Shown piece by piece: positions 24,927-38,081 of a DNA stretch of 64,000 nt. The notes beneath the pieces are model-generated. The model saw only the letters and a list, made by a program, of their open reading frames with translations. It searched no databases and had not been told where the DNA came from. A program made the position numbers and the translations under genes. This DNA comes from a virus. The stretch covers positions 7,539 through 71,538 of the IMG/VR virus record IMGVR_UViG_2974520824_000001, one strand, 5' to 3'. Each line of letters opens with the position of its first letter. Within the stretch, counting starts at the first letter, position 1.

Positions 24927-25156
24927 TCGTCTACGGTCGTGAAGGTTGCTATCAATGCAAAGCGACCGTGAAAGCTCTTGATAAGAGCCACATTCCGCAT
25001 GAGTACAAGCATATCGATGAGGCACCCGAATCCCACCGGGCGGGGGTCGCTTCGTTGCCGATTGTTGTTGCGGGAGAACAGAAGTGGGGCGGTTTCCGTC
25101 CTGATCGGATCAAAGAGCTTGCTGAAACACCAAAGCAGGTGATGCGCAGTGAATAA
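24914..25156 (+). CDS. nrdH: NrdH-like glutaredoxin / redoxin
   Basis: 80 aa with CYQC active-site motif near N-terminus, thioredoxin-fold-like spacing. Confidence 0.6.
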   Translation: MGSVIVYGREGCYQCKATVKALDKSHIPHEYKHIDEAPESHRAGVASLPIVVAGEQKWGGFRPDRIKELAETPKQVMRSE

Positions 25157-25290
25157 GCAAGTGGAGCAACAACTTTCACTCTTTGGTCTGAAACCCACGG
25201 CCAAGATGAACCGAGAGCCGGTCGGACAGTTGTCAATTGAAGTGCTGGAACTGTCCGAGTCGCCAAAGCAGATGATGCAGGAGAATCATC

Positions 25291-25830
25291 GTGACCGAAC
25301 CGGCTGAAATCGAAAGCGTCCCTTTGCAACCCGCAGCCATCGGGCTGAATATGGACCCTGAAACTGCCTCGTATGTCGGCATGTTGGAGGGAACCATTGC
25401 GGCACTTGTGATTTCGGACGTGAAGAACCGCACCCTGTTGGAGCTTCTGACCGGCGATGGCTGGGAGGCAGCGCGAGTCGATTTCAATGGGGATGCCCTT
25501 ATCGGGCTTGCTGTTTCGGCGCTCGTCAAACAAACCGGAATGTCGACGGCCAACGCGAAAATCCTCGTAATGAAGCGTTGGGCCGAAAGAAACCATCCTG
25601 CCGATTACATCATTCCGCAGGCGGTATCGATTGACCAAATGACCGGCAACGTGCCCACCAGTGGGCAAGATGTCCCGGCCATGTCCGAGCGCGTGAAGGC
25701 ATGGCGAGCTAAGCAGCAAGCCGAAATTGCCGAATTGTCAAGTGCCGCAACAGATTCCGCTAGCGAAACCCCAAGCGGCGCAAGCGATTTGGAGAAGCAA
25801 GCGGAAACTGGCACGAACGTACCAGAGTAG
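25291..25830 (+). CDS. hypothetical protein (last gene of late operon); contains palindrome copy 1
   Basis: GTG start after GCAGGAGAATCATC; 179 aa. Confidence 0.45.
   Translation: MTEPAEIESVPLQPAAIGLNMDPETASYVGMLEGTIAALVISDVKNRTLLELLTGDGWEAARVDFNGDALIGLAVSALVKQTGMSTANAKILVMKRWAERNHPADYIIPQAVSIDQMTGNVPTSGQDVPAMSERVKAWRAKQQAEIAELSSAATDSASETPSGASDLEKQAETGTNVPE
25652..25667. repeat. 16-bp palindrome copy 1 (TGCCCACCAGTGGGCA), inside CDS, encodes PTSG
   Basis: Exact palindrome seen in sequence. Confidence 0.8.
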
Positions 25831-25847
25831 TACAACTGAATCTGATT

Positions 25848-25899
25848 GCGCGGCAAGGGTTTTCGATCACTGAATTCCCTTGTCGCGCTTTCGTTTCCG
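25848..25899 (+). terminator. putative factor-independent terminator of late operon
   Basis: GCGCGGCAAGGG...CCCTTGTCGCGC 12-bp stem (one G-U) followed by TTTCGTTTCC. Confidence 0.45.
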
Positions 25900-27347
25900 T
25901 GAAAGCGGACTAGGGTCCGGTATTGTGTAGAACTTGACAGGTGTCAATTTTGAAACCCTAACTGTTGCAAAGGATTTCAAATCTGAAAAACGTTGCAGCA
26001 CAAGGCTTTTCGGCCAAAGTTAGTTAACGGCCATTCACTTTTCGGTTTGGGCACCGGACTGTAGTCCGCTTAGGCTGTAGCAAACAGATTATGTCAACCT
26101 AAACGGAACGTGCGTTCTGATCGCCTGTTTTCGCTGGTCAGCGACCTAATTTGGAGGGTGTGAGATAGGTCACACTTTCCAGCAAACTGATGTTTTCCCT
26201 GCATCTACCTGGGTTTTTGGTATAGTGGTGGTTGAAGTGTGTTTATTGAACACATGGTGATTGAAAACTACATAGCGGGTGACGAGCGAACTACTTGGAT
26301 AGTTCGATGCCACGCGAAACGCGCTCGGATTCGACAATGGAAATTTTCCTAGAATCGCAACAGTGAGCCACGCCGCCGGGTATCGATACAAAGTGTGTGT
26401 GAGTGAAAAGCCAACGATGTGGGCGGCCGGATCGAAACACGCGAACACGTATTCCAAGCAAGCGTTGCAAGTGAGCCGAGAACTCATTAGCTTACGAAGT
26501 ACCGATCAGGAGACGTGCGACAATGGCACTGATTGAATCGCGAACCGGATAGTCACCCGCTATGCAGTACAGGCCAGCACCACGGCCAGACAACTAGATA
26601 CGAGGAAACGCGAAAGTTGGCTAATACCAGCAACTTTCACGGAGTATCCGTATCGAATAGTGTACCGCTGCAAGGGTTTTCAAAGACCGGAGTTAGCGCG
26701 TAGTGTTCATCCGGCGATAACGGAGAGACAACCGGAGTCCGCATAGCGGCCCGCCGATCAGGGGACACCCTTTGACCTGAGACTACGTGTGAAATATGGC
26801 ACCCTGAGCAGCGCAATCGAATCGGTGAAAACGTTTGGTGCTGGCACGTTCTGACGATTCGATTGGTGTTCGGTAGGTTCCTACAATTGATAAGACCTGT
26901 TCAGTCAGGCCCAATCCCTAGTCCTACCAACACATTCCATCCATCCTCGGTACAGGGGTTTTCCTCTGTACCAACAGATTTCACGAACAGATAACCGCTG
27001 GTCGTGGCGTCCGTTGGTGCAGGTGGCAGGCTTAGAAATATGGCACGTCCGTATTGGTACCTGGCTGGAACGTAGAAAAGAGTGACCCCGTCTCCGCTAC
27101 TATAATAAGGCGATTTTTCAAAAGTGTCTCAGATTGGCTCTCAGGCCCGGGAATGGGCTTTTGACCAGGACTTTTGTAGGGCATCTCCCAGGACGTGACC
27201 AGGCCGGTACGCGCCAGTACCACACCAAATGGCTTCCCAGACATACGGTTTGGGATTTTGGATTGAAACCTGTTGTGCGGCAACGCATTTCGGGCAGGCA
27301 TCCAAACGAAAGACCTTGCGCTGCAAGGCAATCCGAGAGGATAGGGA

Positions 27348-27485
27348 ATGAAGTTTGCGGTCTGCACTGCTAGCGGCAACGTCCTGGCACGTTTCGGAAA
27401 CGTGACGTGGGCACGTCGTTTTGCGCGTGAGAACAAACCGTGTGTTTTGTGGAATACCAAGACAAACAAGCAACTTCGCTTCTGA
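27348..27485 (+). CDS. small hypothetical protein (45 aa), first gene carrying the conserved GAGAGGAT leader
   Basis: ATG preceded by CCGAGAGGATAGGGA; not in ORF track (<60 aa); ends 10 nt before first tRNA-like element. Confidence 0.35.
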   Translation: MKFAVCTASGNVLARFGNVTWARRFARENKPCVLWNTKTNKQLRF

Positions 27486-27495
27486 GAGCAGTAAG

Positions 27496-27539
27496 GCCCG
27501 CAACGGTTTTCAACGTAGGTTCGATTCCTACGGCGGGTA
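27496..27539 (+). ncRNA. tRNA-like top-half element U1 (acceptor stem + T-arm, no anticodon arm)
   Basis: GCCCGC-AACGGTTTTCAAC-GTAGGTTCGATTCCTAC-GCGGGT-ACG; perfect T-loop TTCGATT. Confidence 0.5.
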
Positions 27540-27568
27540 CGTTATAGCGAAACACGCTATATGAGAGG

Positions 27569-27763
27569 ATGATTCAAATGGCGTTGAATCGTGAGCAGAA
27601 GAAAATGCTCGGAGATGCGGCGTTCGGCAAGGCAATCCAATTGGTCGAATTCTTCGGTGAAGACGAGACCACGGAAGCTCTTGCCGCACAAGGCATTAAA
27701 CCCAGCGAGGCGCGAGAGCAAATCGAAATCTGGTTCTCCAAGATTCCATCGACGTACAAGTAA
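27569..27763 (+). CDS. hypothetical small protein (cassette gene 1)
   Basis: Leader TGAGAGGATGATTCAAATG; consensus alignment suggests true start at second ATG 27578. Confidence 0.45.
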   Translation: MIQMALNREQKKMLGDAAFGKAIQLVEFFGEDETTEALAAQGIKPSEAREQIEIWFSKIPSTYK

Positions 27764-27775
27764 TGAATCACGTTC

Positions 27776-27828
27776 GGGCACAACGGTTTCCGCGCTAGCG
27801 GGCGGGGGTTCGATTCCCCCGGTGCCTA
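27776..27828 (+). ncRNA. tRNA-like top-half element U2
   Basis: GGGCAC-AACGGTTTCC(GCGCTAGCGG)-GGGGGTTCGATTCCCCC-GTGCCT-ACA; extra mini-hairpin in linker. Confidence 0.5.
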
Positions 27829-27863
27829 CAATGCACCAAATCGGTTGCAGGAGAGGATGAATC

Positions 27864-28157
27864 ATGGCTGACATCAAAGCACGCAATCGAATCTGCACCA
27901 ATTGCCAGGTCGATGTGGACGTGCGCCAATGTGATTGCAACGCAAGGGTTACCACGCTGATTTCGTGGGACTGCACACGTTGCGGCACAGAGGTTGTCAC
28001 CAGCGGCGGTCACGACGTTGATTGCCGCAAATGTGGTGCTTGCTACAACGGTTCAGGCCAACGTCTCCGCGACGATTGGCGTTCCAATCCTTCGGTCTAC
28101 GATGACGAAATCGGAGATATGGAAGGGTACGAATTGCAGCACGCGAACGATTGGTGA
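27864..28157 (+). CDS. Cys-rich small protein (putative zinc-binding)
   Basis: Leader GCAGGAGAGGATGAATCATG; CTNC...CDC...CTRC...CRKCGAC motifs. Confidence 0.5.
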   Translation: MADIKARNRICTNCQVDVDVRQCDCNARVTTLISWDCTRCGTEVVTSGGHDVDCRKCGACYNGSGQRLRDDWRSNPSVYDDEIGDMEGYELQHANDW

Positions 28158-28170
28158 CGTAATCACCGGA

Positions 28171-28211
28171 GGGACAACGGTTTTCGGGTAGGTTCGATTC
28201 CTACCGTCCCA
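28171..28211 (+). ncRNA. tRNA-like top-half element U3
   Basis: GGGAC-AACGGTTTTCG-GGTAGGTTCGATTCCTACC-GTCCC-ACG; preceded by hairpin GGTGACGTAATCACC. Confidence 0.5.
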
Positions 28212-28250
28212 CGCTTCAACCAAATCGGTTGGCAGAGAGGGTGGTTCACG

Positions 28251-28490
28251 ATGTCTGATTATTCCTTTCACATCGAAGTCACTGACACGACAGTGGCTTA
28301 CGAGTGTGAGGCAGACCGGGCAGAACGTGAGGGATTCGACAACGTGGCGAAACGTCAACGTGCAATTGCTTTGCACTTGAAGAACGCATACGAACACATG
28401 CGCGACATTTGCCCCGAAGGTTACCGGGTCGAAACGAAAATCGTTGTCTCACATGTCCCTAACGTCAACCCTGTTCTGAATAGACGCTGA
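28251..28490 (+). CDS. hypothetical small protein
   Basis: Leader CAGAGAGGGTGGTTCACGATG after hairpin CCAAATCGGTTGG. Confidence 0.45.
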   Translation: MSDYSFHIEVTDTTVAYECEADRAEREGFDNVAKRQRAIALHLKNAYEHMRDICPEGYRVETKIVVSHVPNVNPVLNRR

Positions 28491-28499
28491 ATCATGGTG

Positions 28500-28541
28500 G
28501 GCCGGAACGGTATTAGGTGGGTTCAACTCCCACCCCGGCTA
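28500..28541 (+). ncRNA. tRNA-like top-half element U4
   Basis: GGCCGG-AACGGTATTAG-GTGGGTTCAACTCCCAC-CCGGCT-ACA; acceptor stem identical to U7. Confidence 0.45.
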
Positions 28542-28577
28542 CAATGCGACGAAATACGTTGCAGGAGAGGATGGTTC

Positions 28578-29357
28578 ATGATGAACGACGATCTGGCTTA
28601 CGTGGCTAAGTGCTGCTTTCATTCCTCTGACGATCACAACCCCATTGGTGGTTGGGACGCCGGTTACTGCTCTGGAAACAGTTGCGGTTGCGAGGAATTG
28701 AGCGATGAGCGCGCCACGGTGCTTGAGGTCTTGAATCATGAGTACGGAACCGCTTTGACTGCAAGCGATTTGGAATACAAAAACGACGTTCCTCGTGAAT
28801 GGTCACACATTCTCAAGCTTGGACCGTATGGTCGGAATCTCGTAATCGACTTGACCAGCGCACGCGATGTGCATGGTTACGATGACGCGCTGACGACCTC
28901 CAATTACGAAGTCCTGCAAGAGAATTGGAAAGGCTACGACGCACTATGCGACGGTGGCTACTCCAATTGCTATTCCATTGGCCTGCAATTCGATGAGGCA
29001 TCCCCCGCCGATCTGGTTTCCACGGTCAAGTCTCTGGAAGACTATCCCGCACTTGATGATTCGCGAATGAGCGAGCTTGAGTGGGAATGGATTACAGAGC
29101 AGTGGAGCGACCACGGCATTCAGGATGCTCGAATCAAGCTGTCGGAGTTGCTATCTCACGATGGCAAGACGCGGTTTGAAATCGAATTGCCTGACGGTGA
29201 TTGGTTCGATGAGATGATTCGGGCCGACATCTTCGGTGACGATTCAAACGTTCCGTACTACGAATCGGGCGGCGGCGCTGTGTATCCCATTGACGAAATC
29301 CTTTCGGACAGTGCGACACTCGCCAAGTACGGTTCAATACTGTTTGCCCTGGTCTAA
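28578..29357 (+). CDS. hypothetical acidic protein (259 aa)
   Basis: Leader GCAGGAGAGGATGGTTCATGATG; in-frame ATG 28578 chosen over upstream track start 28494, which would read through U4. Confidence 0.5.
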   Translation: MMNDDLAYVAKCCFHSSDDHNPIGGWDAGYCSGNSCGCEELSDERATVLEVLNHEYGTALTASDLEYKNDVPREWSHILKLGPYGRNLVIDLTSARDVHGYDDALTTSNYEVLQENWKGYDALCDGGYSNCYSIGLQFDEASPADLVSTVKSLEDYPALDDSRMSELEWEWITEQWSDHGIQDARIKLSELLSHDGKTRFEIELPDGDWFDEMIRADIFGDDSNVPYYESGGGAVYPIDEILSDSATLAKYGSILFALV

Positions 29358-29366
29358 AGGGCAGGA

Positions 29367-29407
29367 GCGCCAACGGTTTTCGGTGAGGTTCGATTCCTCA
29401 CGGCGCA
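29367..29407 (+). ncRNA. tRNA-like top-half element U5
   Basis: GCGCC-AACGGTTTTCG-GTGAGGTTCGATTCCTCAC-GGCGC-ACG. Confidence 0.5.
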
Positions 29408-29442
29408 CGTATCCCAAACGGGAAACAAGAGAGGATGGAACA

Positions 29443-29727
29443 GTGGCGAATACTACCTTCAAAGGTGTTGAGATTTACCGGGTTTCGCGCAACAAGGCCA
29501 GTGGTACCAACGGTAACCCACGGTTCACATTGCACACGGATCGCGGCGAAATGCACACCGGCGTAGACGCTTCCCTTGGTTACGGCATCGAAAACCTGAC
29601 CAATAAGCGGCTCCCTGAGACGTTCGTGATCGGAAACCCCGGTGTCACAGTCGATTTGGTCGGTTGTGGCAGCCGACCGGATTCCAACATCATTCACGTC
29701 ATTCGGGACGGTAAACAGCTGATGTAA
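29443..29727 (+). CDS. hypothetical small protein
   Basis: Leader CAAGAGAGGATGGAACAGTG; GTG start; track ORF 29236 would read through U5. Confidence 0.45.
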   Translation: MANTTFKGVEIYRVSRNKASGTNGNPRFTLHTDRGEMHTGVDASLGYGIENLTNKRLPETFVIGNPGVTVDLVGCGSRPDSNIIHVIRDGKQLM

Positions 29728-29735
29728 TCCAAAGA

Positions 29736-29779
29736 GGGCCAACGGTTTTCGTTGGGGTTCGATTCCCCAAGGCCCACCA
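29736..29779 (+). ncRNA. tRNA-like top-half element U6 (3' end ACCA encoded)
   Basis: GGGCC-AACGGTTTTCGT-TGGGGTTCGATTCCCCA-AGGCCC-ACCA. Confidence 0.5.
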
Positions 29780-29822
29780 TGCTCCAATTCGTTTGGTGCA
29801 GTAGTGAACAGAGGATGGAAAC

Positions 29823-30269
29823 ATGGTAAGCAAGATCATTCTGGTGAATGCGTCTACCCAACTCGATCCGATCCGCAAAGGCATTGCGCAGGCACGACAT
29901 TCGTTGCGTGTTTGCGTCGATGGTGATGCGGTCAAGTTCAAAATCGATGGCGGCACTTGGTCGCCCGGTTACGGTGGCATTGATCCAGGATCGGATTACG
30001 CCTACTACCAACGCAATTCGGAAGCTGAGAAGTGCATCGCCATTGTCTTGAATGATGATGGCACGATGGAAGATCAGTGCTACACCTGGGAAACCGCACA
30101 GACTTACGCCCAACAGGGCAAGGTGGTTCGTGCGGTCCAGGCCGATGGTCACATGAGTATTGAAGCGATTCAACGACTCTGCGACGCCGACCGCGAAAGG
30201 TATTGGGACTGTTTCGATCCCGGTGACCAGTACACCGGTCCTACTCCGAGAGAGTTTGACGACGTGTGA
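29823..30269 (+). CDS. hypothetical protein (148 aa)
   Basis: Leader ACAGAGGATGGAAACATG after hairpin CACCA...TGGTG. Confidence 0.5.
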   Translation: MVSKIILVNASTQLDPIRKGIAQARHSLRVCVDGDAVKFKIDGGTWSPGYGGIDPGSDYAYYQRNSEAEKCIAIVLNDDGTMEDQCYTWETAQTYAQQGKVVRAVQADGHMSIEAIQRLCDADRERYWDCFDPGDQYTGPTPREFDDV

Positions 30270-30475
30270 AAACCATTGATCCAAACATGAACGCGGACAA
30301 GCAATATCGCGAAGCGTTCATGTTACGCCATAGAGCAGTAGCCATCGGAGATATCGAAATGTCAAGGTACATAGACGATTTGATATGGATGATGGCCTGC
30401 TCAATCGCCGAAGGGTTGCCGCAACCCTGGTCCCAATTCTATCCAATGTTTCAAGAAGAATTTGGGATCGAATAG
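30266..30475 (+). CDS. hypothetical small protein
   Basis: 69-aa ORF overlapping upstream stop by 4 nt; no leader cassette. Confidence 0.4.
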   Translation: MKTIDPNMNADKQYREAFMLRHRAVAIGDIEMSRYIDDLIWMMACSIAEGLPQPWSQFYPMFQEEFGIE

Positions 30476-30480
30476 TGGTG

Positions 30481-30522
30481 GGCCGGAATGGTTTTCGGAG
30501 GGTTCGATTCCCTCCCCGGCTA
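30481..30522 (+). ncRNA. tRNA-like top-half element U7
   Basis: GGCCGG-AATGGTTTTCG-GAGGGTTCGATTCCCTC-CCGGCT-ACG. Confidence 0.5.
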
Positions 30523-30564
30523 CGTAATCGGTTGAACCACAACCGGATACAGAGAGGATGGAAC

Positions 30565-30966
30565 ATGACCACGACTACCCTTGAGGACCGTGCTGCCGAG
30601 CTTGGCAAGGACTACGGAAAGGCTGTTGGATCATGGGTCGTTGACGGTAACACGTCAAAAGAGCAGTGCGACAAGCTGATTGAGGGTATCGATACGTGCG
30701 ATCCCGAAGTCATGGACTTGATTCCATCGCCTCTGTCCGGCGAATTTGCCGACGGCCCAACGGTTTACAGCGTTCTAAAAGAACTTGGCCTTGATCCGGC
30801 AGTGTTCGATGAACAGTTCGATCACTTGATCGACGTTTACGAAGAAGCATTCAGCGAAAGCTGGTGTGACACAGTCTATCAGGCCGCTCATGCCAATCAT
30901 CCTGACTACGATCCGTGCTCGGTTTGTGGTCTGTATGGGCATAAGTGGAAAGAACACGTCGATTGA
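30565..30966 (+). CDS. hypothetical acidic protein
   Basis: Leader ACAGAGAGGATGGAACATG; ATG 30565 in frame with track ORF 30385. Confidence 0.5.
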   Translation: MTTTTLEDRAAELGKDYGKAVGSWVVDGNTSKEQCDKLIEGIDTCDPEVMDLIPSPLSGEFADGPTVYSVLKELGLDPAVFDEQFDHLIDVYEEAFSESWCDTVYQAAHANHPDYDPCSVCGLYGHKWKEHVD

Positions 30967-31101
30967 ATGTATCGCGAAAACCCGTACCTCCCAACGCCTT
31001 TGAGGTGGTACGAGTACGTGATACACAATGGACGAAAACACCGTGCGCTCAAGAACTTTCGCGGTTTGACCGTGATACTTGAGTGCGTGGAGTAGTGGTT
31101 A

Positions 31102-31143
31102 TCCCCGATGGTCGTAGCCGTGGTTCGACTCCACGGCGGGGAA
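31102..31143 (+). ncRNA. tRNA-like top-half element U8
   Basis: TCCCC-GATGGTCGTA-GCCGTGGTTCGACTCCACGGC-GGGGA-ACG; 7-bp T-stem. Confidence 0.45.
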
Positions 31144-31188
31144 CGAGCGCGCCAATTCCGGTGTGCCACAAAAAGAAAGAGGATGGTA

Positions 31189-31416
31189 ATGGGTATGGCT
31201 ACCGTACAGAACCGCCAATCGGCCTACGTTCGTAGGCTCCGAGTAGGCGACAAGTTCAACGAAGACGGTACTACCTGGATCGTGACCCGAGAGCCGGAAG
31301 TAATCGACGGCGCAGAGGTTGCGGTCTACCTGAAACCCCTTCCGTCACCGCCACGTTCGCGGTCGCGACGATTCTCCTACGCAATGGATGCGCGGGTTCA
31401 CATCGTCCGGTCCTAA
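31189..31416 (+). CDS. hypothetical small protein
   Basis: Leader AAAGAAAGAGGATGGTAATGGGTATG; start ambiguous between ATG 31183, 31189 and 31195. Confidence 0.4.
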   Translation: MGMATVQNRQSAYVRRLRVGDKFNEDGTTWIVTREPEVIDGAEVAVYLKPLPSPPRSRSRRFSYAMDARVHIVRS

Positions 31417-31434
31417 GTGAGTAGACGGGGGATA

Positions 31435-31498
31435 GCCCGGTTGGTACGAATTCGGTTGAAAGACACCGAATTTCGCAAGTTCAATCCTTGCGCGGGCA
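31435..31498 (+). ncRNA. tRNA-like element U9 (acceptor + long internal hairpin + T-arm; atypical)
   Basis: GCCCG...AATTCGGT-TGAAAGAC-ACCGAATT...GCAAGTTCAATCCTTGC-CGGGC-ACT; T-loop TTCAATC. Confidence 0.35.
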
Positions 31499-31565
31499 CT
31501 ATCTCAGATGCTATTCTGAGAACACCAACGAATCTCGTTGGGACACACAAAGAAAGAGGATGGAT

Positions 31566-32753
31566 ATGAGCCAGGAAACGATGGAATGGTTGAACAAGTA
31601 CATTCTGGTTGGGAACTGCAAGGCCCGACCGAATGCTTGGCACAACCGTCCTGAATTCCGCGAGGCAAATGGTTTGGAGGAAAACCACTTTCAAGACCCG
31701 ATTCCGTATCGGGTTGTGGTTGACCGGCTTTTCAACTGGAAAGCAATCAGCGCCCCGAAAGCGAATCTCATCCCGGTTCCGAAACGAGACGCCAATTGGT
31801 TTGACGCAGACGGCAATCCGTTCAAGATTGTCATGTCGTCCGAGTACGACTACAAAAAGCGTGAAATCATCGGTGGCGAACAGGGTATCGTCAAGTCAGA
31901 TACCTTGGAGCACATCGCAACTCACAGTGGCAAGTACAAAATCCACGATTACGAACAGTGGCTTTTGCAGTTGCAGTCCAACGTGATTGGCGATACGCTC
32001 TCGATTCTCGGTGCCGGTCTACTTCGCAACGGTGCGCAAGCCTACGTTCAGGTGGCACTGCCAGAAACCGTGCAGGACAACAACTCTGGTATGGAATTCG
32101 TTCCGTACATCATGGGGTCAACGTCGCTGGACGGTTCGATTCCGAGCACTTACAGCGCGGGATCGCTTCTGGTGGTTTGCGATAACACCAGAGACGGAGC
32201 GATTGCACAGGCGAACCAGTCGGGTCGCATCTACAAGGCCAAGCACACGTCGAAATCCCTTGATACGGATAGCATTAAAGACGTGCAGCAGGCGTTGGGA
32301 ATCGTCCACCAGACCGCCGAGTCCATGAAGCATGAATTTGCTGAACTGGCCGCTATCGACATGAACCGTCGGCAGACGCTGAAAGTGCTTGATATCATTC
32401 AGCCTATCCCGAAGGAAAAAGACGGTGCGACCAAGCGACAGGTTGTAATCGCGGAAAACAAGCGAGAGGGGTTGCTGCACGCAATCTTTCGCGATCCCAC
32501 AGGCGGCGCGGAATGGAAGAACACCGCGCTTGGCCTGAGCAATGGCGTCTCCACGTACTTCACTTGGAACACCAGCGTTAAGGGAAATCGCTTGGAGCGC
32601 AACGCCGAAAAGGCCATCAAGGCTGGCGTTGAGCGTCGGAAAGCGTTGGAGTTGGGCGCGATTGAATCGGGCGCAACATTCAGAGACGTTGACCGGCAAA
32701 CCATGATGGCGATTGCTCACGTCATGAATCGACCGGAGTTGGTCGGCAAGTAG
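31566..32753 (+). CDS. hypothetical protein (395 aa), largest cassette gene; possibly a DUF932-like phage/plasmid protein (unverified)
   Basis: Leader AAAGAAAGAGGATGGATATG after two hairpins; the family resemblance is a recollection only. Confidence 0.5.
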   Translation: MSQETMEWLNKYILVGNCKARPNAWHNRPEFREANGLEENHFQDPIPYRVVVDRLFNWKAISAPKANLIPVPKRDANWFDADGNPFKIVMSSEYDYKKREIIGGEQGIVKSDTLEHIATHSGKYKIHDYEQWLLQLQSNVIGDTLSILGAGLLRNGAQAYVQVALPETVQDNNSGMEFVPYIMGSTSLDGSIPSTYSAGSLLVVCDNTRDGAIAQANQSGRIYKAKHTSKSLDTDSIKDVQQALGIVHQTAESMKHEFAELAAIDMNRRQTLKVLDIIQPIPKEKDGATKRQVVIAENKREGLLHAIFRDPTGGAEWKNTALGLSNGVSTYFTWNTSVKGNRLERNAEKAIKAGVERRKALELGAIESGATFRDVDRQTMMAIAHVMNRPELVGK

Positions 32754-32759
32754 TAAGGA

Positions 32760-32805
32760 GGGTAGCTCTGGTGAGCTTAGTTCAGGTTCGATTCCTGACT
32801 ACCCA
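32760..32805 (+). ncRNA. tRNA-like element U10 (acceptor + small D-like hairpin + T-arm)
   Basis: GGGTAG-CTCTGGTGAGCTTAG-TCAGGTTCGATTCCTGA-CTACCC-ACG. Confidence 0.5.
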
Positions 32806-32847
32806 CGTAAGCCGTTGACAGTCAACGGAATACAGAGAGGATGGAAC

Positions 32848-33168
32848 GTGCGAATCCCCATGAGGACGAAGTATGTCCGCGAGGATCACGCCTTGCTGAA
32901 AAGCAATGTGTACGTTGATGGTTCAAAGATGATCCAAGTCTTTTCGGCCATCGGCGAACCGCTTCTGACGGCAACCGTGTGTCTTGAGGCATACGGTGAA
33001 AAGCCCGATGAGGGAAACGTTTTCATCAAGACGTGGTCCGAAAACGAAGGTGTCTTTGAGGCACTGCACAAGGCGGGGGTGATTGGCAACGCGGTGCGAA
33101 TGATTCCGGTCGGTGGTCATGATGCTCAAGTTGCCGAATGCCCTCTGCTCGCGAAAGGTCGTTTCTAA
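32848..33168 (+). CDS. hypothetical protein
   Basis: Leader ACAGAGAGGATGGAACGTG after perfect hairpin CCGTTGACAGTCAACGG; GTG start (alternative ATG 32860). Confidence 0.45.
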   Translation: MRIPMRTKYVREDHALLKSNVYVDGSKMIQVFSAIGEPLLTATVCLEAYGEKPDEGNVFIKTWSENEGVFEALHKAGVIGNAVRMIPVGGHDAQVAECPLLAKGRF

Positions 33169-33169
33169 C

Positions 33170-33415
33170 ATGGCATTTGAGACACGGATCAGAAATCGGA
33201 ACACGATTGAAAAGGTCAATCCTTCAACCGGTCACGTCATCGCCAAAGCTGTCAGAGCACAGCCGGGAGCGAATTGGCATGTCGGAGCAGAGATTCAGAC
33301 CGATATGGGAAAGAAGATGACCAACGTCGGAGAGATCGCGGCCCATCTTCCCGAAGTGATGCAACGAAAGCTCGCTTTGAGCTGGGTTGATTCACTGCCT
33401 TTCAATCTGTACTGA
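33170..33415 (+). CDS. hypothetical small protein
   Basis: ATG 33170 two nt after upstream TAA, in frame with track ORF 33113. Confidence 0.4.
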   Translation: MAFETRIRNRNTIEKVNPSTGHVIAKAVRAQPGANWHVGAEIQTDMGKKMTNVGEIAAHLPEVMQRKLALSWVDSLPFNLY

Positions 33416-33424
33416 ATCACGGTA

Positions 33425-33466
33425 TGCCGGAACGGTTTTCAGTGGGGTTCGATTCCCCGCCCGGCA
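33425..33466 (+). ncRNA. tRNA-like top-half element U11
   Basis: TGCCGG-AACGGTTTTCAG-TGGGGTTCGATTCCCCG-C-CCGGCA-GCA. Confidence 0.5.
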
Positions 33467-33504
33467 GCAATGCGGCGAATGACCGCAGGAAAGAGGATGG
33501 AAAC

Positions 33505-34044
33505 ATGAAATTCGTTGACCTGAGCCAGAATCCGCCCGCCGAGGTTACGGTTCTGACCTTGCGAGACATCGCGTTCAAAATCAACGGGAACGACGCATCG
33601 ACCTACTCTGGATACGCTCGTGTTTCAGTCCTCCAAAACTGGCACGACGATCCCGAAATCGAAACTCCCGCACCGGATTACACGATCAGTGAAGTTGACT
33701 ACTGGCTTCCCGAGCGTGTCTCCGAGTGGGATATGTTGTATTCCAATGAGATTCAGCGCGAAGAAGACCGAAAGGCCGAACGTCTCAAAAAGGAAAAGAT
33801 CAGCAAGTCCGATCTGATCGAAACCCTGTTGGATCAAGCCAAAGATGTGGAGCGCCGAAACTCTCGGTGCTACAACCACAATCGCGGCAACTCCATGCAG
33901 GACGGTCGGAAACGGGTTCTGGCTCTTGAAGGTGCCAAAGATTTCGTCGAGTCCATGCTTGGCGAATCATCCATGACGAAGGAGCAGCGTACCAAGTGGA
34001 ACGAATTGCTGAGCCAGGCCAAAGCTCACGTGAAAATGCAGTAA
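33505..34044 (+). CDS. hypothetical protein with charged coiled-coil-like C-terminal half
   Basis: Leader GGAAAGAGGATGGAAACATG after hairpin TGCGG..CCGCA. Confidence 0.5.
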   Translation: MKFVDLSQNPPAEVTVLTLRDIAFKINGNDASTYSGYARVSVLQNWHDDPEIETPAPDYTISEVDYWLPERVSEWDMLYSNEIQREEDRKAERLKKEKISKSDLIETLLDQAKDVERRNSRCYNHNRGNSMQDGRKRVLALEGAKDFVESMLGESSMTKEQRTKWNELLSQAKAHVKMQ

Positions 34045-34199
34045 AGGTCAAGCGTGCCAGAGCATTTGGCGTGAACCTGTTTTTCGCAACGTGTGACGAG
34101 TGCCGATGCTGGATCAAATCTGGTGTCGGCCAACACGTTTGGGAACAGAGAACACAGGCGCGTGCAGCGGCACTAGCACATCGGCACTGAATTAAGGTG

Positions 34200-34241
34200 G
34201 CCCACAGTGGTTTTCGCCAGGGTTCGATTCCCTGGGTGGGC
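34200..34241 (+). ncRNA. tRNA-like top-half element U12
   Basis: GCCCAC-AGTGGTTTTCG-CCAGGGTTCGATTCCCTGG-GTGGGC-GCG. Confidence 0.5.
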
Positions 34242-34270
34242 GCGCTGACCAAAGCGGTCACAAAGAGAGG

Positions 34271-34675
34271 ATGGAAATGAAATCGGTACGAGATTGTGCG
34301 ATCACGTTCGTCGTCGTATCCGCAATCATCGCAAGCTTTTTCGCGGTCTATATGCTGTTCGCTCCAAAGGCGAAGGCAGACGGCTACGACTTCGGTTGCG
34401 AGACAATTCATTGGGGGTTCCTCGGATCGCAACGTCGCATCATCTGTGACGGGCCGAAACGTCCCGATGGATCGTGGGAGCGCGGTCGCGTCATTCTGAC
34501 ACCTGCCCACTACGTTCCCAGAAGTTGTTATTTCGGAACGTATTCCAGCAGTTGCAGCGGCGGTTACCAAGTTGATACCACCGTGCAGGCCAGAGAGTCT
34601 TACATCGTTTTTGATTCAAACGTTCTGCCGGATGAGCCGGGATGGCTGCCGCCAGGAACGGACACTCTGCGATGA
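34271..34675 (+). CDS. secreted/membrane protein (N-terminal signal-anchor)
   Basis: Leader CAAAGAGAGGATGGAAATG; hydrophobic N-terminus ITFVVVSAIIASFFAVYMLFAPKA. Confidence 0.5.
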   Translation: MEMKSVRDCAITFVVVSAIIASFFAVYMLFAPKAKADGYDFGCETIHWGFLGSQRRIICDGPKRPDGSWERGRVILTPAHYVPRSCYFGTYSSSCSGGYQVDTTVQARESYIVFDSNVLPDEPGWLPPGTDTLR

Positions 34676-34782
34676 AAGCTCTTGCGGCCCTGTTGATTTC
34701 GACAATCGTTTTGACCGGCTGTGAAGCGCCGCGAGGAACGACCGACGAACACCCGGTTTACGCAACCTGCGTGAATCGCTGA
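34672..34782 (+). CDS. 36-aa lipoprotein precursor (micro-ORF)
   Basis: ATGA overlap with upstream stop; MKALAALLISTIVLTGC has a lipobox-like LTGC; not in ORF track. Confidence 0.4.
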   Translation: MKALAALLISTIVLTGCEAPRGTTDEHPVYATCVNR

Positions 34783-34791
34783 ATCAAGGTG

Positions 34792-34835
34792 TCCCCCAAT
34801 GGTTTTGAAAGGCAGGTTCGATTCCTGCCGGGGGA
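34792..34835 (+). ncRNA. tRNA-like top-half element U13
   Basis: TCCCCC-AATGGTTTTGAAA-GGCAGGTTCGATTCCTGCC-GGGGGA-GCG. Confidence 0.5.
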
Positions 34836-34875
34836 GCGTTACCGGCCATAGCGGTCGGAACAGAGAGAGGATGGA

Positions 34876-35082
34876 ATGTATTCTGTCACAGTTCAATTGA
34901 ACCATGTGAAGGATTCTGACGACCTGTTGCTCCAACTTGTCAGACTACAAATGGCATTCAATCAGGACGTGGACTGGCTCGCGAAGCTCGCTCAACGAAC
35001 GAATCGTGGGTGCGGTCCATTTCCGTTAGCCTACAAGGGCATTCAGCGGATCGGCACGATTGAGGTCATGCGCAATGGCTAG
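34876..35082 (+). CDS. hypothetical small protein
   Basis: Leader ACAGAGAGAGGATGGAATG. Confidence 0.4.
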   Translation: MYSVTVQLNHVKDSDDLLLQLVRLQMAFNQDVDWLAKLAQRTNRGCGPFPLAYKGIQRIGTIEVMRNG

Positions 35083-35362
35083 GCAGCAGGCGGGGAAAGC
35101 GAAATCCATTCAGGCAGAACCGAAACGAGGTCACAAGTCGAGTACCGCAGACTTGCAGGCCAAAACTCTCAGAAAGGCCCATCGTCAGGGTATGGCGTGG
35201 GATGATTACGAGGTAACGGCTCTAGTGAAAGGAATCGAAAGGGACGCAACAACTTTCGATATCGCCATGTCGATTGGTCGTAGCTACTACGCGGTCATGA
35301 CGACTCGCCGCGCTGTCGGTTTCGCCATGCGACACGCCAACGCGATTTGGGGTGACAAGTGA
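35075..35362 (+). CDS. putative small DNA-binding protein (helix-turn-helix-like)
   Basis: ATG 35075 overlapping upstream stop by 8 nt; TFDIAMSIGRSYYAVMTTRR segment looks HTH-like. Confidence 0.4.
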   Translation: MARQQAGKAKSIQAEPKRGHKSSTADLQAKTLRKAHRQGMAWDDYEVTALVKGIERDATTFDIAMSIGRSYYAVMTTRRAVGFAMRHANAIWGDK

Positions 35363-35508
35363 GAAACAAGGTCCGAAAGAAGGTTCGCGCCAAGAACGTT
35401 GAAAAGCACCGCAGGCGTTTGGAAGATCAGAGATTGATTGACTTCCACAAGACGTTGGCCGATGAGATTCGCGCCGAACGTCAACGCCAAACAGAATCCA
35501 ACAGGTAA
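35359..35508 (+). CDS. 49-aa basic Lys/Arg-rich micro-protein
   Basis: GTG in GTGA overlap with upstream stop; not in ORF track; followed by strong terminator. Confidence 0.3.
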   Translation: MRNKVRKKVRAKNVEKHRRRLEDQRLIDFHKTLADEIRAERQRQTESNR

Positions 35509-35520
35509 CCATTTCAAATG

Positions 35521-35583
35521 AAAACCCCGGTGAGGCAATCGATTTCGCGTAGAAGTCGTGCGTCTCTCCGGGGTTTTCGTCGT
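35521..35583 (+). terminator. rho-independent terminator (bidirectional-looking)
   Basis: AAAACCCCGG(TGAG)...(CTCT)CCGGGGTTTTCGTCGTT: GC stem flanked by A-tract and T-tract. Confidence 0.55.
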
Positions 35584-35681
35584 TGGGGGTGGCTGAGGTA
35601 CCGGCCATGCTATGCTCGTCAGCGAGCGTGGCGTACAGCCGGTCGCACGGCCATCTCCGCAGGTCAACGAGAGGGTCGAAA

Positions 35682-35900
35682 GTGCTTGACAGAGTACGGA
35701 TTTGGGACGGCGAGAACGGAAACGTTCATATTGAACTAAAGGATGAAGACGACGTGCCGTTTTCTCACACCGTGATTCCTCCGCATGAGTGGAAAGAGTT
35801 GCGAGACAATATGATTAAAACGTTCCCCGCCAACGTGTCGGTTTCACTGCTCACGGACTACTTAGTTGCGCTAGGTATCCATGCACTTGAAATGCGGTAA
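35682..35900 (+). CDS. hypothetical small protein
   Basis: GTG 35682 after GAGGGTCGAAA; in frame with track ORF 35583. Confidence 0.35.
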   Translation: MLDRVRIWDGENGNVHIELKDEDDVPFSHTVIPPHEWKELRDNMIKTFPANVSVSLLTDYLVALGIHALEMR

Positions 35901-35957
35901 GAGTCAATGCATTTCATTTGGGATAGAAGAAAGGAGACGACACGCCGGTACAGCTAC

Positions 35958-35986
35958 TTGAATATGTAGGCACTGTGACATACTCT
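35958..35986 (+). promoter_or_regulatory. sigma70-like promoter candidate (TTGAAT-17-TACTCT)
   Basis: -35 TTGAAT 35958-35963, 17-nt spacer, -10 TACTCT 35981-35986, upstream of gene 36042. Confidence 0.3.
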
Positions 35987-36041
35987 TAGGTGGTCTGTCG
36001 ATTCCGGCAGGCAACCTCACTGCACCAAGAGAGAGGTAGCT

Positions 36042-36794
36042 ATGGCTGCACGGCCACGGAGAAGTTCTGTCAAGGAACCATCCCAAATCGAAAAGGACGC
36101 AAGCGAATTCGGCGTCGGAGTGCGTTGTGGCGGTTGGCGGCTCGGTTTGCTTGTCGCCCGAAACGTCATGAAGGTTGGTCAAGGTACTCGCTCGGACTTG
36201 CCCACTAGTGGGCAGGTCGATGGGCAAGTAACGAAGGTGTCAGCGAACCAATTTGCCAAGCTAGCAGGGGTCAGCTCATCCACGGTTGATTACTACTACA
36301 ACGCTTGGCAATTCGCTGCGAAGGCCAGCCTCGTTCCAGACGCCGAAAAGGTGAAGCCAGGAGACGAAGACATCTGCGTTGACGCCGATGCCATCGAAGA
36401 CGAGGACAACCCTCGCACTCACTGGTCACACTTTTACGGCCTTGCGAAGAATCCTCCGAAGGAATCCAAAAAGGCTGAGAAGAAACAAGATTCAAAGCCT
36501 GAACCGGAATCTGACGAGGATGAATCAGACGCCATCGATGAAGACTTCGGCATCAGTGAGGCCGATGCGATGACGGAAGATGAACGGGCAGAAGCGGATT
36601 CGTCAATCAATCGAAACGAACTGCTCGAAATCCTAGAGAGCGCACAGGGTTTGAAGTCGCGTCTTTCTCGGATCGATTCAATCACCGGTCACGAATCTCT
36701 TGCAGCGCAGATCGCAACGGCTGCAAGCGAATTGGCCGATTTGGCTAGCGGAATGGCAGCAACGGACGAAAAGCCGCAACTCCGCGCCGTCTAG
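36042..36794 (+). CDS. putative HTH DNA-binding protein with acidic C-terminal half; contains palindrome copy 2
   Basis: GAGAGAGGTAGCTATG RBS; VSANQFAKLAGVSSSTVDYYYNAWQ looks HTH-like; Asp/Glu-rich region 36360-36600. Confidence 0.5.
   Translation: MAARPRRSSVKEPSQIEKDASEFGVGVRCGGWRLGLLVARNVMKVGQGTRSDLPTSGQVDGQVTKVSANQFAKLAGVSSSTVDYYYNAWQFAAKASLVPDAEKVKPGDEDICVDADAIEDEDNPRTHWSHFYGLAKNPPKESKKAEKKQDSKPEPESDEDESDAIDEDFGISEADAMTEDERAEADSSINRNELLEILESAQGLKSRLSRIDSITGHESLAAQIATAASELADLASGMAATDEKPQLRAV
36199..36214. repeat. 16-bp palindrome copy 2 (TGCCCACTAGTGGGCA), in CDS, encodes PTSG
   Basis: Exact palindrome. Confidence 0.8.
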
Positions 36795-36802
36795 GGGGAA
36801 TA

Positions 36803-36834
36803 GGCCAGTCTCGGGGGTCTGGCCGAAACCTTTT
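36803..36834 (+). terminator. possible terminator hairpin directly upstream of tRNA-Gln
   Basis: GGCCAGTC-TCGGGG-GTCTGGCC then GAAACCTTTT. Confidence 0.35.
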
Positions 36835-36905
36835 GCCCTGTAGTGTAATTGGCAACACTTGGGACTTTGGTTCCCACATTTCAGGTTCGAGTCCTGGCAG
36901 GGCAG
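36834..36905 (+). tRNA. tRNA-Gln (anticodon UUG)
   Basis: Full cloverleaf: acceptor TGCCCTG/CAGGGCA, D-arm GTGT-AATTGGCA-ACAC, anticodon arm TGGGA-CTTTGGT-TCCCA (U33, UUG, R37), T-arm TCAGG-TTCGAGT-CCTGG; 72 nt, no encoded CCA. Confidence 0.85.
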
Positions 36906-37062
36906 CGATCCCACGCTTTTGAAGGGAGGATAGGCAGACCCGATGGGCTGAGAACGTCCCTTGGACGTAAAACTTAACTTTTGCGCGAACACCATGTGAG
37001 GCAGTAAACCGCAATCCGGCTCTGCGGTAAGGGAAATGGATCACCCTTGAGAAACCGGCCAA

Positions 37063-37131
37063 GCCCCATGACTGGTCCCAACGCCAGCTTTAGCACCTGG
37101 CAGCGGGAGGGTTCGATTCCCTTGTGGGGCA
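37063..37131 (+). ncRNA. tRNA-like element U14 (7-bp acceptor, D-arm and T-arm present; anticodon region too short)
   Basis: GCCCCAT-GA-CTGG-TCCCAACG-CCAG-19 nt-GAGGGTTCGATTCCCTT-GTGGGGC-A-CG. Confidence 0.5.
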
Positions 37132-37158
37132 CGCTATTTCAGCAGAGAGGATGGATCG

Positions 37159-37719
37159 ATGGCGAACGCCGTTCAAAAGGCCGAATCGATTGGCAAGATG
37201 GCTACAAAGTCAGGATGGAAAGGCGGCATGGATTCCGAAGTGCGCGAAGGCATTCGGATCACAAAGCTTGAACTTGTCCGAAACGAAGACGAGTACGCCT
37301 ATTTCATCTGGCACGGCTCAAAGCTGGTCGAATCGAACTATCAGATTTTCGACGGCCCGCTCATTCCCATCGATTCCAAACGTAAACTCCTGCAATACAT
37401 TTCGGGCTGGCCTAGTCTAATTGAACTGTTCCAGACATATCCCGAATTCAATCGGCCCATGCTTGTGCAGCAATTCCGCAAGCTGCCGTTTTCATTTGAA
37501 GATGACAATGACACGATCATCGATTCCCTTATAAACAAACAGCTTTGGTGGTACGAACATGAAGGTGCCACAATTCGTTACGATCAATCAAAACTCAAGC
37601 GCAACAGCAAGTTTCGCATCGTAGACATTGGGCACCGTAAGCTCTTTCACGCCGACTGCGAGCAGGCCGGTCTTCGATCATTTCATTTGGATACCTTGCT
37701 TGAGGTCCGTGAAAGATGA
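37159..37719 (+). CDS. hypothetical protein (186 aa)
   Basis: Leader GCAGAGAGGATGGATCGATG immediately after U14. Confidence 0.5.
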   Translation: MANAVQKAESIGKMATKSGWKGGMDSEVREGIRITKLELVRNEDEYAYFIWHGSKLVESNYQIFDGPLIPIDSKRKLLQYISGWPSLIELFQTYPEFNRPMLVQQFRKLPFSFEDDNDTIIDSLINKQLWWYEHEGATIRYDQSKLKRNSKFRIVDIGHRKLFHADCEQAGLRSFHLDTLLEVRER

Positions 37720-38081
37720 GTGCCGACAAGACAATTGGCGTCGGCCAGTGCCGAAAGTGTGGTCGGCCTGCGAGCCTATACAAAACTCACGTTTGCTACA
37801 CCTGTCGCGAAATCGAAAAGGCCGAACGCGAGGACCGTCTAAAGTCGTTGGCAGGCATGGTATCTGCCGACGCTGAGCAAGAGACGATCACGATTCCAAT
37901 TTCGGAATACGAGGGTCTGCTACGAAAAGCCATGAAGGTCAAGGCAATTCGTGAAAAGCTAGACGAATACCACATACGCAAAAAGCTGGTCAGTGCCCAT
38001 GTCACTCATGACCATCTACATCGATTGCGCCGCAAGACATTAGCAGAGATTTACCAACTAATTATCGCGAAAGAGGTCTGA
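37716..38081 (+). CDS. zinc-ribbon protein
   Basis: ATGA overlap; CRKCG...CYTC Cys pairs. Confidence 0.45.
   Translation: MSADKTIGVGQCRKCGRPASLYKTHVCYTCREIEKAEREDRLKSLAGMVSADAEQETITIPISEYEGLLRKAMKVKAIREKLDEYHIRKKLVSAHVTHDHLHRLRRKTLAEIYQLIIAKEV

Follow-up and report, generated by a model that had tools for sequence, protein, structure and literature searches.

An unannotated gap of 1,517 bp in the genome of Mycobacterium phage Indlulamithi (NC_048824.1; genus Indlulamithivirus, 71,538 bp, host M. smegmatis) was analysed within a 64,000-nucleotide stretch of viral DNA, positions 7,539 to 71,538 of the IMG/VR record IMGVR_UViG_2974520824_000001, which is hereafter called the window and in which each position equals the genome position minus 7538. 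Positions 25831-27347 of the window coincide exactly with the space between gp39 and gp40, and this gap, to judge from its sequence, separates the late from the early gene block as a conserved control region that encodes no protein. Very probably, a genuine structured RNA is contained in it, and a complement (anti-SAS) of the start-associated sequence (SAS), a ribosome-binding motif placed before the early genes, lies at the 3' end of this RNA; the balance of probability leans slightly toward an overall explanation in which an RNA made from a predicted promoter (P1) would act in trans on the early genes through this anti-SAS tail. From left to right, the gap can be divided into a late terminator; palindromic repeats with a Crp-type site; P1 and the RNA of about 740 nucleotides (nt); and a second predicted promoter (P2) with its leader and a decayed tRNA-like element. 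An earlier sequence-only reading of this stretch, which had offered a promoter or regulatory hub, a non-coding RNA locus, an origin or a decayed section of the cassette array as possible interpretations, was partly right; the anti-SAS at the 3' end of a large covarying RNA went unnoticed there.

The gap is by far the largest in the Indlulamithi genome, the next largest being ~250 bp. All annotated features of the phage (112/112) lie on the + strand, neither an integrase nor a repressor is found among these annotations, and the gene order runs from structural genes through the lysis cassette and gp37-39 to a small early-gene block and then the replication genes, the phage encoding its own DnaE, primase and helicase. 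BLASTN against GenBank phages returned Indlulamithi itself as the sole match; relatives were therefore reached through the gp39 protein and through contigs encoding gp39 homologues, a route that brought in the phages Cuke, Fowlmouth and MrMiyagi, the IMG/VR contig L113 and eleven more metagenome contigs (phages of roughly 70 kb), with L155 added by a DNA-pattern scan. In 19/19 relatives (phages or metagenome contigs), a gene-free gap of 0.9-2.0 kb follows the gp39 homologue, and the gap is in turn followed by an array of small genes with tRNA-like elements between them. For closer pairs of relatives, the identity of the gap amounts to 72-79%, compared with 73-82% for the adjacent gp39-like gene; the conservation in relatives that the sequence-only reading had proposed to look for is thus present, at about the level of the neighbouring gene.

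The RNA occupies the middle of the gap, with the following parts:

26233-26972, + strand: large multi-domain structured RNA of ~740 nt, recognised by covariation (~530-930 nt in relatives)
26267-26568, + strand: 5' domain, closed by a 17-nt helix (26267-26283 / 26552-26568; 94% complementary, I4)
26667-26812, + strand: 3' domain, closed by GCUGC / GCAGC (26667-26671 / 26808-26812)
26704-26785, + strand: 84-position core motif, in the order outer helix, GAUAA, hairpin A (with GAGACAA as its loop), AG, hairpin B, CCC, GACA-loop hairpin
26935-26948, + strand: anti-SAS TTCCATCCATCCTC, the reverse complement of the early-gene motif GAGGATGGA(A), directly 5' of the terminal hairpin
26949-26972, + strand: terminal 10-bp hairpin GGUACAGGGG-UUUU-CCUCUGUACC (folding free energy, dG, -17.6 kcal/mol; z = -4.0)

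The core motif was scored on a plain, unfitted MAFFT alignment of seven sequences from two lineages, with Indlulamithi outside; 94.6% of the cells are paired, compared with 23-39% when the partner columns are slid, 13 of the 16 pairs are compensatory, and the covariation score is reached by 0/500 shuffles. A covariance model of this motif (R1) yields exactly one + strand match in 16 of 20 sources and nothing elsewhere in 242 kb, and its matches outside the training set are Indlulamithi (61 bits, E = 2e-15), L185, L187, L155 and, weakly, L189. When the motif is considered on 14 distinct sequences (alignment A6), 15/16 pairs covary. Similarly, an unfitted MAFFT alignment (A7) of seven RNAs from the contigs designated group I was used for scoring at full length, giving 12 helices with 54 pairs, 40 of which are changed on both sides; here 92.8% of the cells are paired, as against 35-44% in slid controls, and again none of the shuffles (0/500) reaches the observed score. 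Among the individual helices, the inner long-range helix of the 5' domain (26294-26299 / 26453-26458) covaries in 5/6 pairs, the closing helix of the 3' domain is changed on both sides in 4/5 pairs, and the terminal hairpin covaries in 8/10 pairs; an equivalent of the helix that closes the 5' domain was recognised in L113 by visual inspection, and a long-range helix of four pairs aligns, in Indlulamithi, beside the 17-nt closing pairing. In all, compensatory changes keep the helices in diverged homologues, with 93-96% of cells paired against 23-44% in slid controls.

The G.U combination accounts for ~8% of paired cells; since it would be A.C on the other strand, and given the orientation of P1, the RNA is assigned to the + strand. 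In a sliding-window analysis of folding energy, the terminator region alone stands out (z = -5.6) and the body of the RNA is unexceptional by single-sequence thermodynamics, so that the case for the RNA rests on covariation; the global RNAalifold fold was noisy, and for this reason only individually checked helices are given. Rfam 15, applied to the whole window at the gathering threshold, recovers a tRNA-Gln only, and when 25000-38000, four relatives and the gap by itself were scanned permissively with Rfam, all matches stayed at chance level; memberships in RNase P, tmRNA, group I/II introns, GOLLD, ROOL and 6C were rejected, as no Rfam model matched. The covariance and structure search against related phages, which the sequence-only reading had recommended, thus lends strong support to its non-coding RNA locus, by way of covarying helices, a conserved promoter-like element upstream and a covarying hairpin that closes the RNA. 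A comparison of Fowlmouth with MrMiyagi gives 99% identity in its first 364 nt, which cover the last part of the gp36 gene and the beginning of the gap, and ~79% in the remainder, a drop that places a mosaic junction within the RNA gene.

The most conserved element of the gap is the anti-SAS, for TTCCATCCATCCTC is found identical, once per gap, in 19/19 relatives while its flanks diverge. In the window, TTCCATCC and TCCATCCT occur on the + strand nowhere but at 26935-26948. The counterpart of the anti-SAS, the SAS motif aGAGGATGGA(A), is located 0-5 nt upstream of the starts of ~15 early genes (27565-37147); GAGGATGG precedes 11 of the early-gene starts in this interval, or 13 if the shorter GAGGATG is counted. 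Every lineage carries an SAS before its early genes, in the form GAGGATGGAA in most and AAGGATGGAA in the Cuke group; in L177, L179 and L185, the variant GAGGGTGGAA is used rather than GAGGATGGAA (e.g., at L177 7852, 8192 and 9135), the anti-SAS stays TTCCATCCATCCTC, and the A-to-G change in the variant keeps the pairing via G.U wobble. Predicted duplexes of the anti-SAS with the early ribosome-binding sites have a mean energy of -14.4 kcal/mol, 14/23 being at or below -14, compared with a mean of -9.9 kcal/mol for 78 other genes, of which 7/78 are at or below -14. The complementarity that characterises an antisense RNA is therefore found here, in that the 14-mer is the reverse complement of the SAS and the duplex energies favour the early genes.

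The distribution of the anti-SAS pattern was followed through three collections. A scan of the viral collection gave already-known relatives only; a scan of metagenomes gave 55 loci, the real ones being L155 and L153/L171 only, with ~10 other matching loci belonging to an unrelated low-GC coding gene; and a scan of reference genomes gave 14 matches, all by chance and 0 in Actinobacteria, and hence no evidence for prophage copies.

The predicted control elements on either side of the RNA are:

26159-26174, no strand assigned: Crp-type palindrome TGTGAGATAGGTCACA, a perfect match to the consensus TGTGA-N6-TCACA
26218-26226, + strand: predicted promoter P1 with extended -10 element TGGTATAGT (hexamer 26221-26226; predicted start near 26233)
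27100-27163, + strand: predicted promoter P2 CTATAATA and leader (-10 at 27101-27106), conserved in L113, L022 and group I

At the place homologous to P1, the relatives checked have the TANNNT hexamers TATAGT, TAGTAT, TAATAT, TATAAT, TATTAT, TAGGAT and TAAGAT, most of them with an upstream TGN. Upstream of P1, TGTGAGATAGGTCACA is the only TGTGA-N6-TCAC site in the 64-kb window, and 18/19 relatives have exactly one such site per gap. The consensus of M. smegmatis Crp1/Crp2 is TGTGA-N6-TCACA, and the functional cydA site CBS2 of this host lies at -73 to -58 (PMC7739888); the site in Indlulamithi spans ~-74 to -59 of the predicted P1 start, near the CBS2 position, and its distance to P1 varies among relatives. 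The Crp-type site suggests that host cyclic AMP (cAMP)-Crp signalling may feed into a lytic phage programme. In the P2 leader, GTGTCTCAGA lies at 27124-27133 and the hairpin GGCCCGGGAAUGGGCU at 27144-27159, followed by UUUU; P2 and its leader are kept in L113, L022 and all seven other group I contigs aligned, and the hairpin shows a compensatory change in L113. Both P1 and P2 have the -10 pattern (TANNNT, in extended form at P1) and are conserved; a generic two-hexamer scanner called neither. The early promoter or regulatory hub put forward from the letters alone accordingly gains support from conservation, namely that of two -10 elements, of a palindrome with the Crp consensus and of operator-like palindromes.

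Two smaller features lie around P2. A terminator-like hairpin at 27235-27263, between P2 and gp40, consists of UCCCAGACAUACGGUUUGGGA and then UUUUGG; it is not conserved in the aligned relatives and may be an Indlulamithi-specific attenuator or a product of chance. The exact 12-mer GAAATATGGCAC, which had been reported as a recurring motif, does occur twice, at 26791-26802 in the 3' domain of the RNA and at 27035-27046 between the terminal hairpin and P2 (starts at 26791 and 27035), and L187 has the similar AAATATCGGAC at the second of these positions.

From these elements, a mechanism can be proposed in which the RNA would be transcribed from P1, possibly under host cAMP-Crp control, and released or stabilised by the terminal hairpin. 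The anti-SAS tail would then pair in trans (9 contiguous bp, ~-16 to -20 kcal/mol) with the ribosome-binding sites of ~15 early mRNAs, and the pairing could tune or shut off early translation, the simplest form being repression via competition with the tail of 16S rRNA. The large folded body of the RNA might serve as a scaffold, a stabiliser or a partner-binding platform, and P2 with its leader would lead into the early genes.

Several observations weigh against this interpretation. The contiguous SAS/anti-SAS pairing is only 9 bp long; the unpaired probability of the anti-SAS, as predicted from partition functions, is inconsistent, ranging from 0.10 to 0.88 among homologues; and in Indlulamithi, the terminal hairpin has no U tract, 3-4 U being found after it in Cuke, MrMiyagi, Fowlmouth, L155 and L189. 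On account of the inconsistent accessibility of the tail and of the missing U tract in Indlulamithi, SAS pairing in trans as the mode of action is held tentatively, somewhat short of an even chance. The hairpin itself is possibly a terminator or a processing or stability element. Moreover, the R1 model of the core motif has no match in the L113/L188 lineage, P2 is not recognisable in Cuke, MrMiyagi and Fowlmouth, and P1, P2, the start site and the 3' end of the RNA are predictions. The helices at full length were picked on the alignment that was used for scoring, and the sequences are phylogenetically related, so that the full-length shuffle statistics overstate significance; the core motif and the terminal hairpin stand independently of this helix selection.

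Among the alternatives, most weight is given to a 5' leader of the early operon, long and acting in cis; a GOLLD/ROOL-like RNA comes second and an origin with an activating transcript third. Such a leader would extend from P1 through the terminal hairpin into the early genes and would, for instance, mask the ribosome-binding sites that come first, until the cistrons are freed by RNase processing at the tRNA-like elements, or attenuate at the hairpin. The RNA and all genes share one strand, the U tract of the hairpin is weak or absent, and in Cuke, MrMiyagi and Fowlmouth, ~95 nt without a convincing -10 element separate the hairpin from the first early gene; with no recognisable P2 in these three phages, the RNA may there be the 5' leader of the early operon. 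A cis leader remains unlikely for the group as a whole, in view of the separate, well-conserved -10 element of P2 downstream of the hairpin in Indlulamithi, L113, L022 and all group I contigs, and of a single anti-SAS facing ~15 SAS copies over 10 kb.

The trans-acting explanation also bears on a question that is older than this phage group. The SAS and extended SAS (ESAS) of Cluster K mycobacteriophages were described by Pope et al. 2011, who left open whether the reader is an RNA or a protein and gave no interpretation of the reverse SAS copy, K1 phages having a single opposite-orientation copy away from gene starts (PMC3203893). In both systems, an asymmetric motif that contains a Shine-Dalgarno sequence lies just upstream of many non-structural starts, in one orientation and often preceded by an inverted repeat, with one reverse copy per genome; the Indlulamithi group thereby fits the general pattern of SAS/ESAS-type systems, which calls for such a motif 0-8 nt upstream of many non-structural starts and for a rare reverse copy. 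The motifs differ, being GGGATAGGAGCCC in Cluster K and aGAGGATGGAA in Indlulamithi, so that the Indlulamithi system is regarded as an analogue and not as the same family; furthermore, the Indlulamithi units add a tRNA-like minihelix, and the reverse copy stands at the 3' end of a large covarying RNA.

In the Cluster K1 phage Adephagia (JF704105, L190), 16 forward SAS copies and one reverse copy with one mismatch are found (~0.03 expected by chance, by our own estimate). The reverse copy, at 58682-58694, lies within the loop of a long hairpin, AGGCGTCGACCAG ... CTGGTCGACGTCT, and the 432 bp between gp92 and gp93 in which it falls carry no annotation. A non-coding anti-SAS is thus found in another SAS system, unrelated to the first, which suggests that an anti-SAS RNA may be present in Cluster K as well. 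The generalisation that phages with a shared early-gene SAS encode a dedicated RNA that reads the SAS by base pairing, a regulon-wide translational switch of which Cluster K would have a smaller analogue, is put forward as a possibility that is rather doubtful at present. In the Indlulamithi/Cuke/Fowlmouth group, the dedicated RNA would be a structured one of ~550-900 nt, possibly switched by host cAMP-Crp, that binds by its invariant tail the ribosome-binding sites of ~15 tRNA-punctuated early mRNAs at once; in Cluster K, it would be the hairpin-loop anti-SAS in the right-end non-coding gap. The SAS has been unexplained in mycobacteriophages since 2011, and a phage RNA with its exact complement, invariant across lineages amid surroundings at ~60-75% identity and placed at the boundary of late and early genes, offers a testable explanation, in that compensation between the 14-mer and the SAS makes the question genetically accessible.

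Independently of SAS pairing, the RNA constitutes a new family among the few very large bacterial and phage RNAs supported by covariation, in tractable phages of M. smegmatis for which recombineering tools exist. GOLLD and ROOL are RNAs of hundreds of nucleotides, ornate and multi-domain, supported by covariation, associated with phages or prophages and often situated near tRNA genes. It is conceivable that the Indlulamithi RNA is of this type, with a function unrelated to the SAS (assembly, scaffold, anti-defence or host takeover) and an anti-SAS that is incidental or intended for another partner; it is likewise a large, ornate, multi-domain covarying phage RNA that adjoins tRNA-like genes, and its ~700-nt body far exceeds the needs of an antisense seed. 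Nevertheless, this explanation is judged improbable, given that the most conserved element of the gap is a 14-mer complementary to the SAS and that no Rfam model matches, those of GOLLD and ROOL included; the Indlulamithi RNA further differs from both in residing in phages of Actinobacteria and in having an antisense element and a conserved promoter context of its own.

Anti-Shine-Dalgarno small RNAs, such as the mycobacterial 6C/B11, are ~60-100 nt long, host-encoded and equipped with seeds in C-rich loops. The Indlulamithi RNA shares with them a pyrimidine-rich single-stranded element complementary to purine-rich ribosome-binding sites of several mRNAs; it differs in being phage-encoded and ~740 nt long, with a 14-nt seed that lies beside the terminal hairpin and is matched to a phage-specific extended ribosome-binding motif. 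Large structured phage RNAs and anti-Shine-Dalgarno small RNAs are thus known kinds, and the Indlulamithi RNA represents a new family with features of both and a specific target; the literature searched yielded no account of this RNA, the anti-SAS or the tRNA-like punctuation.

To the left of the RNA, the gap begins with two further features:

25848-25897, + strand: predicted intrinsic terminator of the late operon (structural and lysis genes), a 12-bp perfect GC-rich stem (25848-25888) followed by UUUCGUUUCC
25838-26071, no strand assigned: operator-like palindrome cluster with 27-nt quasi-palindromes, GGAC-N4-GTCC and TTGACAGGTGTCAA

The terminator-like hairpin noticed earlier at 25848-25899 is real, its stem having a dG of -30.8 kcal/mol (z = -6.2); as in intrinsic terminators, the stable GC-rich hairpin is directly followed by a U-rich tract, UUUCGUUUCC, and a comparable long hairpin is found after the gp39 homologue of Cuke, MrMiyagi and Fowlmouth. 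The 27-nt quasi-palindrome, GAA-N4-5-TTG-N5-CAA-N4-5-TTC, has copies in the gap at 25838, 25985 and 27265; it is found 9 times in the window compared with 0.015 times in shuffles, and 3-7 copies occur in the left part of the gaps of relatives. Outside the gap, it is present at 10166, 14294, 22087, 22858, 57815 and 60684, all in annotated coding regions. These quasi-palindromes may be binding sites for a phage DNA-binding protein, with a distribution comparable to that of the Cluster A stoperators.

The GTTGCA and GGGTTTTC repeats that the sequence-only reading had listed are genuine and resolve into this quasi-palindrome. Copies of GGGTTTTC are found at 25857, 26674 and 26956, and its enrichment across the window is weak (9 observed vs 3.5 expected); the first two copies belong to a ~29-nt repeat family (D1) that resembles the 5' half of the tRNA-like unit (D15), and the copy at 26956 forms the loop side of the terminal hairpin of the RNA. 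The inverted repeat TTGACAGGTGTCAA at 25934, also seen earlier, is present as a single occurrence in the window; it is kept in L177 and L179, and other relatives have GGAC-N4-GTCC palindromes in its place. In Indlulamithi, such GGAC-N4-GTCC palindromes are situated at 25907 and 26056, within a 19-nt inverted repeat (25903-25921 / 26053-26071); counted with the Crp-type site, the palindrome-rich block extends over 25838-26215. The inverted repeat flanks 131 bp (25903-26071) and had been considered as an invertible promoter, an idea that was given up since the genome has no annotated recombinase and since the arms of the repeat are GGAC-N4-GTCC palindromes found as single copies in relatives.

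In ColE1 RNA II and T4 oriF/oriG, a promoter by clustered protein-binding repeats gives rise to a folded transcript of several hundred nucleotides. A replication origin of this kind, in which the palindromes would be iterons and the P1 transcript an activating or primer RNA that forms an R-loop, would suit by far the largest non-coding gap of a genome that has its own DnaE, primase and helicase, with 3-7 clustered 27-nt palindromes and a predicted promoter directly downstream. It is nonetheless considered quite improbable: G.U-containing helices kept over ~700 nt and an invariant tail complementary to ribosome-binding sites are not expected of a primer transcript, the 27-nt palindrome also lies inside six genes elsewhere, and cumulative GC skew has no inflection at the gap. 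Furthermore, evidence of an RNA-DNA hybrid or of an RNase H site is not seen in the Indlulamithi gap, and priming leaves the tail and the conserved junction motifs unexplained.

The gap is not protein-coding, as had been proposed from the absence of credible genes, and a check for an overlooked coding gene, covering the open reading frames (ORFs) of both strands and codon phase, found none. Among the ORFs of the gap, the longest (105, 145 and 120 aa) run on the minus strand, and neither Pfam nor PHROG gives an above-threshold match for eight gap ORFs, comprising these three and five more. Across nine pairs of relatives, gap substitutions show no preference for any codon phase (p = 0.57-0.96) and the majority of indels do not come in multiples of 3 (e.g., 1/10 and 3/16 do), whereas the adjacent gp39-like gene shows, in the same pairs, a strong third-position bias (p = 7e-9 to 9e-3) and in-frame indels. 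Moreover, the alignment of Cuke, MrMiyagi and Fowlmouth contains single-base indels within otherwise perfectly conserved blocks of the gap.

A hidden protein gene or small ORF, such as a leftward micro-ORF that would use 26935-26948 as an SAS-type ribosome-binding site on the minus strand, is consequently very improbable. The minus-strand succession of hairpin, GAGGATGGATGGAA and start codon does reproduce the layout found before early genes, and the annotations or gene calls of Cuke (gp34), Fowlmouth (gp37) and L173 do include minus-strand ORFs in this region; yet the minus-strand ORFs that follow the motif have 3, 8 and 12 codons in Indlulamithi, Cuke and L113 (manual reading) and are not conserved, on which ground the micro-ORF was rejected, and the G.U pairs and both -10 elements point to the + strand, in addition to the lack of codon periodicity, the frame-breaking indels in conserved blocks and the absence of Pfam/PHROG matches. 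Annotated ORFs overlap the RNA in Cuke (gp34, L115 7181-7330) and in Fowlmouth (gp37 and gp38, L116 6728-7042 and 7152-7550), two of the three being on the minus strand in otherwise one-stranded genomes; their reading frames are not conserved in the sister phages, and these annotations are probably misannotations on top of a structured RNA. Compared with Cuke and MrMiyagi, Fowlmouth also has a ~270-nt insertion (L116 ~7300-7560) between the terminal hairpin and the first early gene, which contains an ATG-initiated ORF.

The right end of the gap holds one element related to the early array:

27257-27332, + strand: degenerate first tRNA-like element (model R2: 22.2 bits, E ~1e-3), upstream of the gp40 start at 27348

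The ribosome-binding site and start of gp40 come after this element, and the T arm (GGAGTTCGATTCTCC) is intact at the corresponding position in relatives. The R2 model, built from 13 intact elements, comprises an acceptor-like stem, a bulge of 10 nt and a T arm GGTTCGATTCC; in a search with filters off, the 13 intact copies score 39-70 bits, and 27257-27332 is the only match in the gap, a stretch at 26647-26720 (9 bits) and the hairpin near 26868 being at noise level. The degenerate T-arm that had been described near 26868 is accordingly a small hairpin only, with no R2 match, and the suggestion of a decayed cassette array holds for 27257-27332 and fails for the rest of the gap, where R2 finds no element. 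That the gap as a whole is a decayed stretch of tRNA-like cassettes with no function of its own, a view to which the degenerate element and the resemblance of the ~29-nt repeat family to the 5' half of the tRNA-like unit would lend themselves, is already largely refuted and is given next to no credence, as no further tRNA-like element is detected by R2 and the gap is as conserved as coding sequence, with covarying helices.

The early array itself, between 27477 and 37137, has thirteen tRNA-like minihelices between its small genes, each with the bulge AAYGGTTTTC and a GGTTCGATTCC T arm and with no anticodon arm, and each followed by a short GTTG-N5-CAAC hairpin, the SAS aGAGGATGGAA and an ATG. 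The true tRNA-Gln at 36834 is the only element reported by ARAGORN and Rfam. To judge from this arrangement, the minihelices look like a tRNA-style punctuation of the polycistronic early transcript, as candidate substrates of RNase P and RNase Z.

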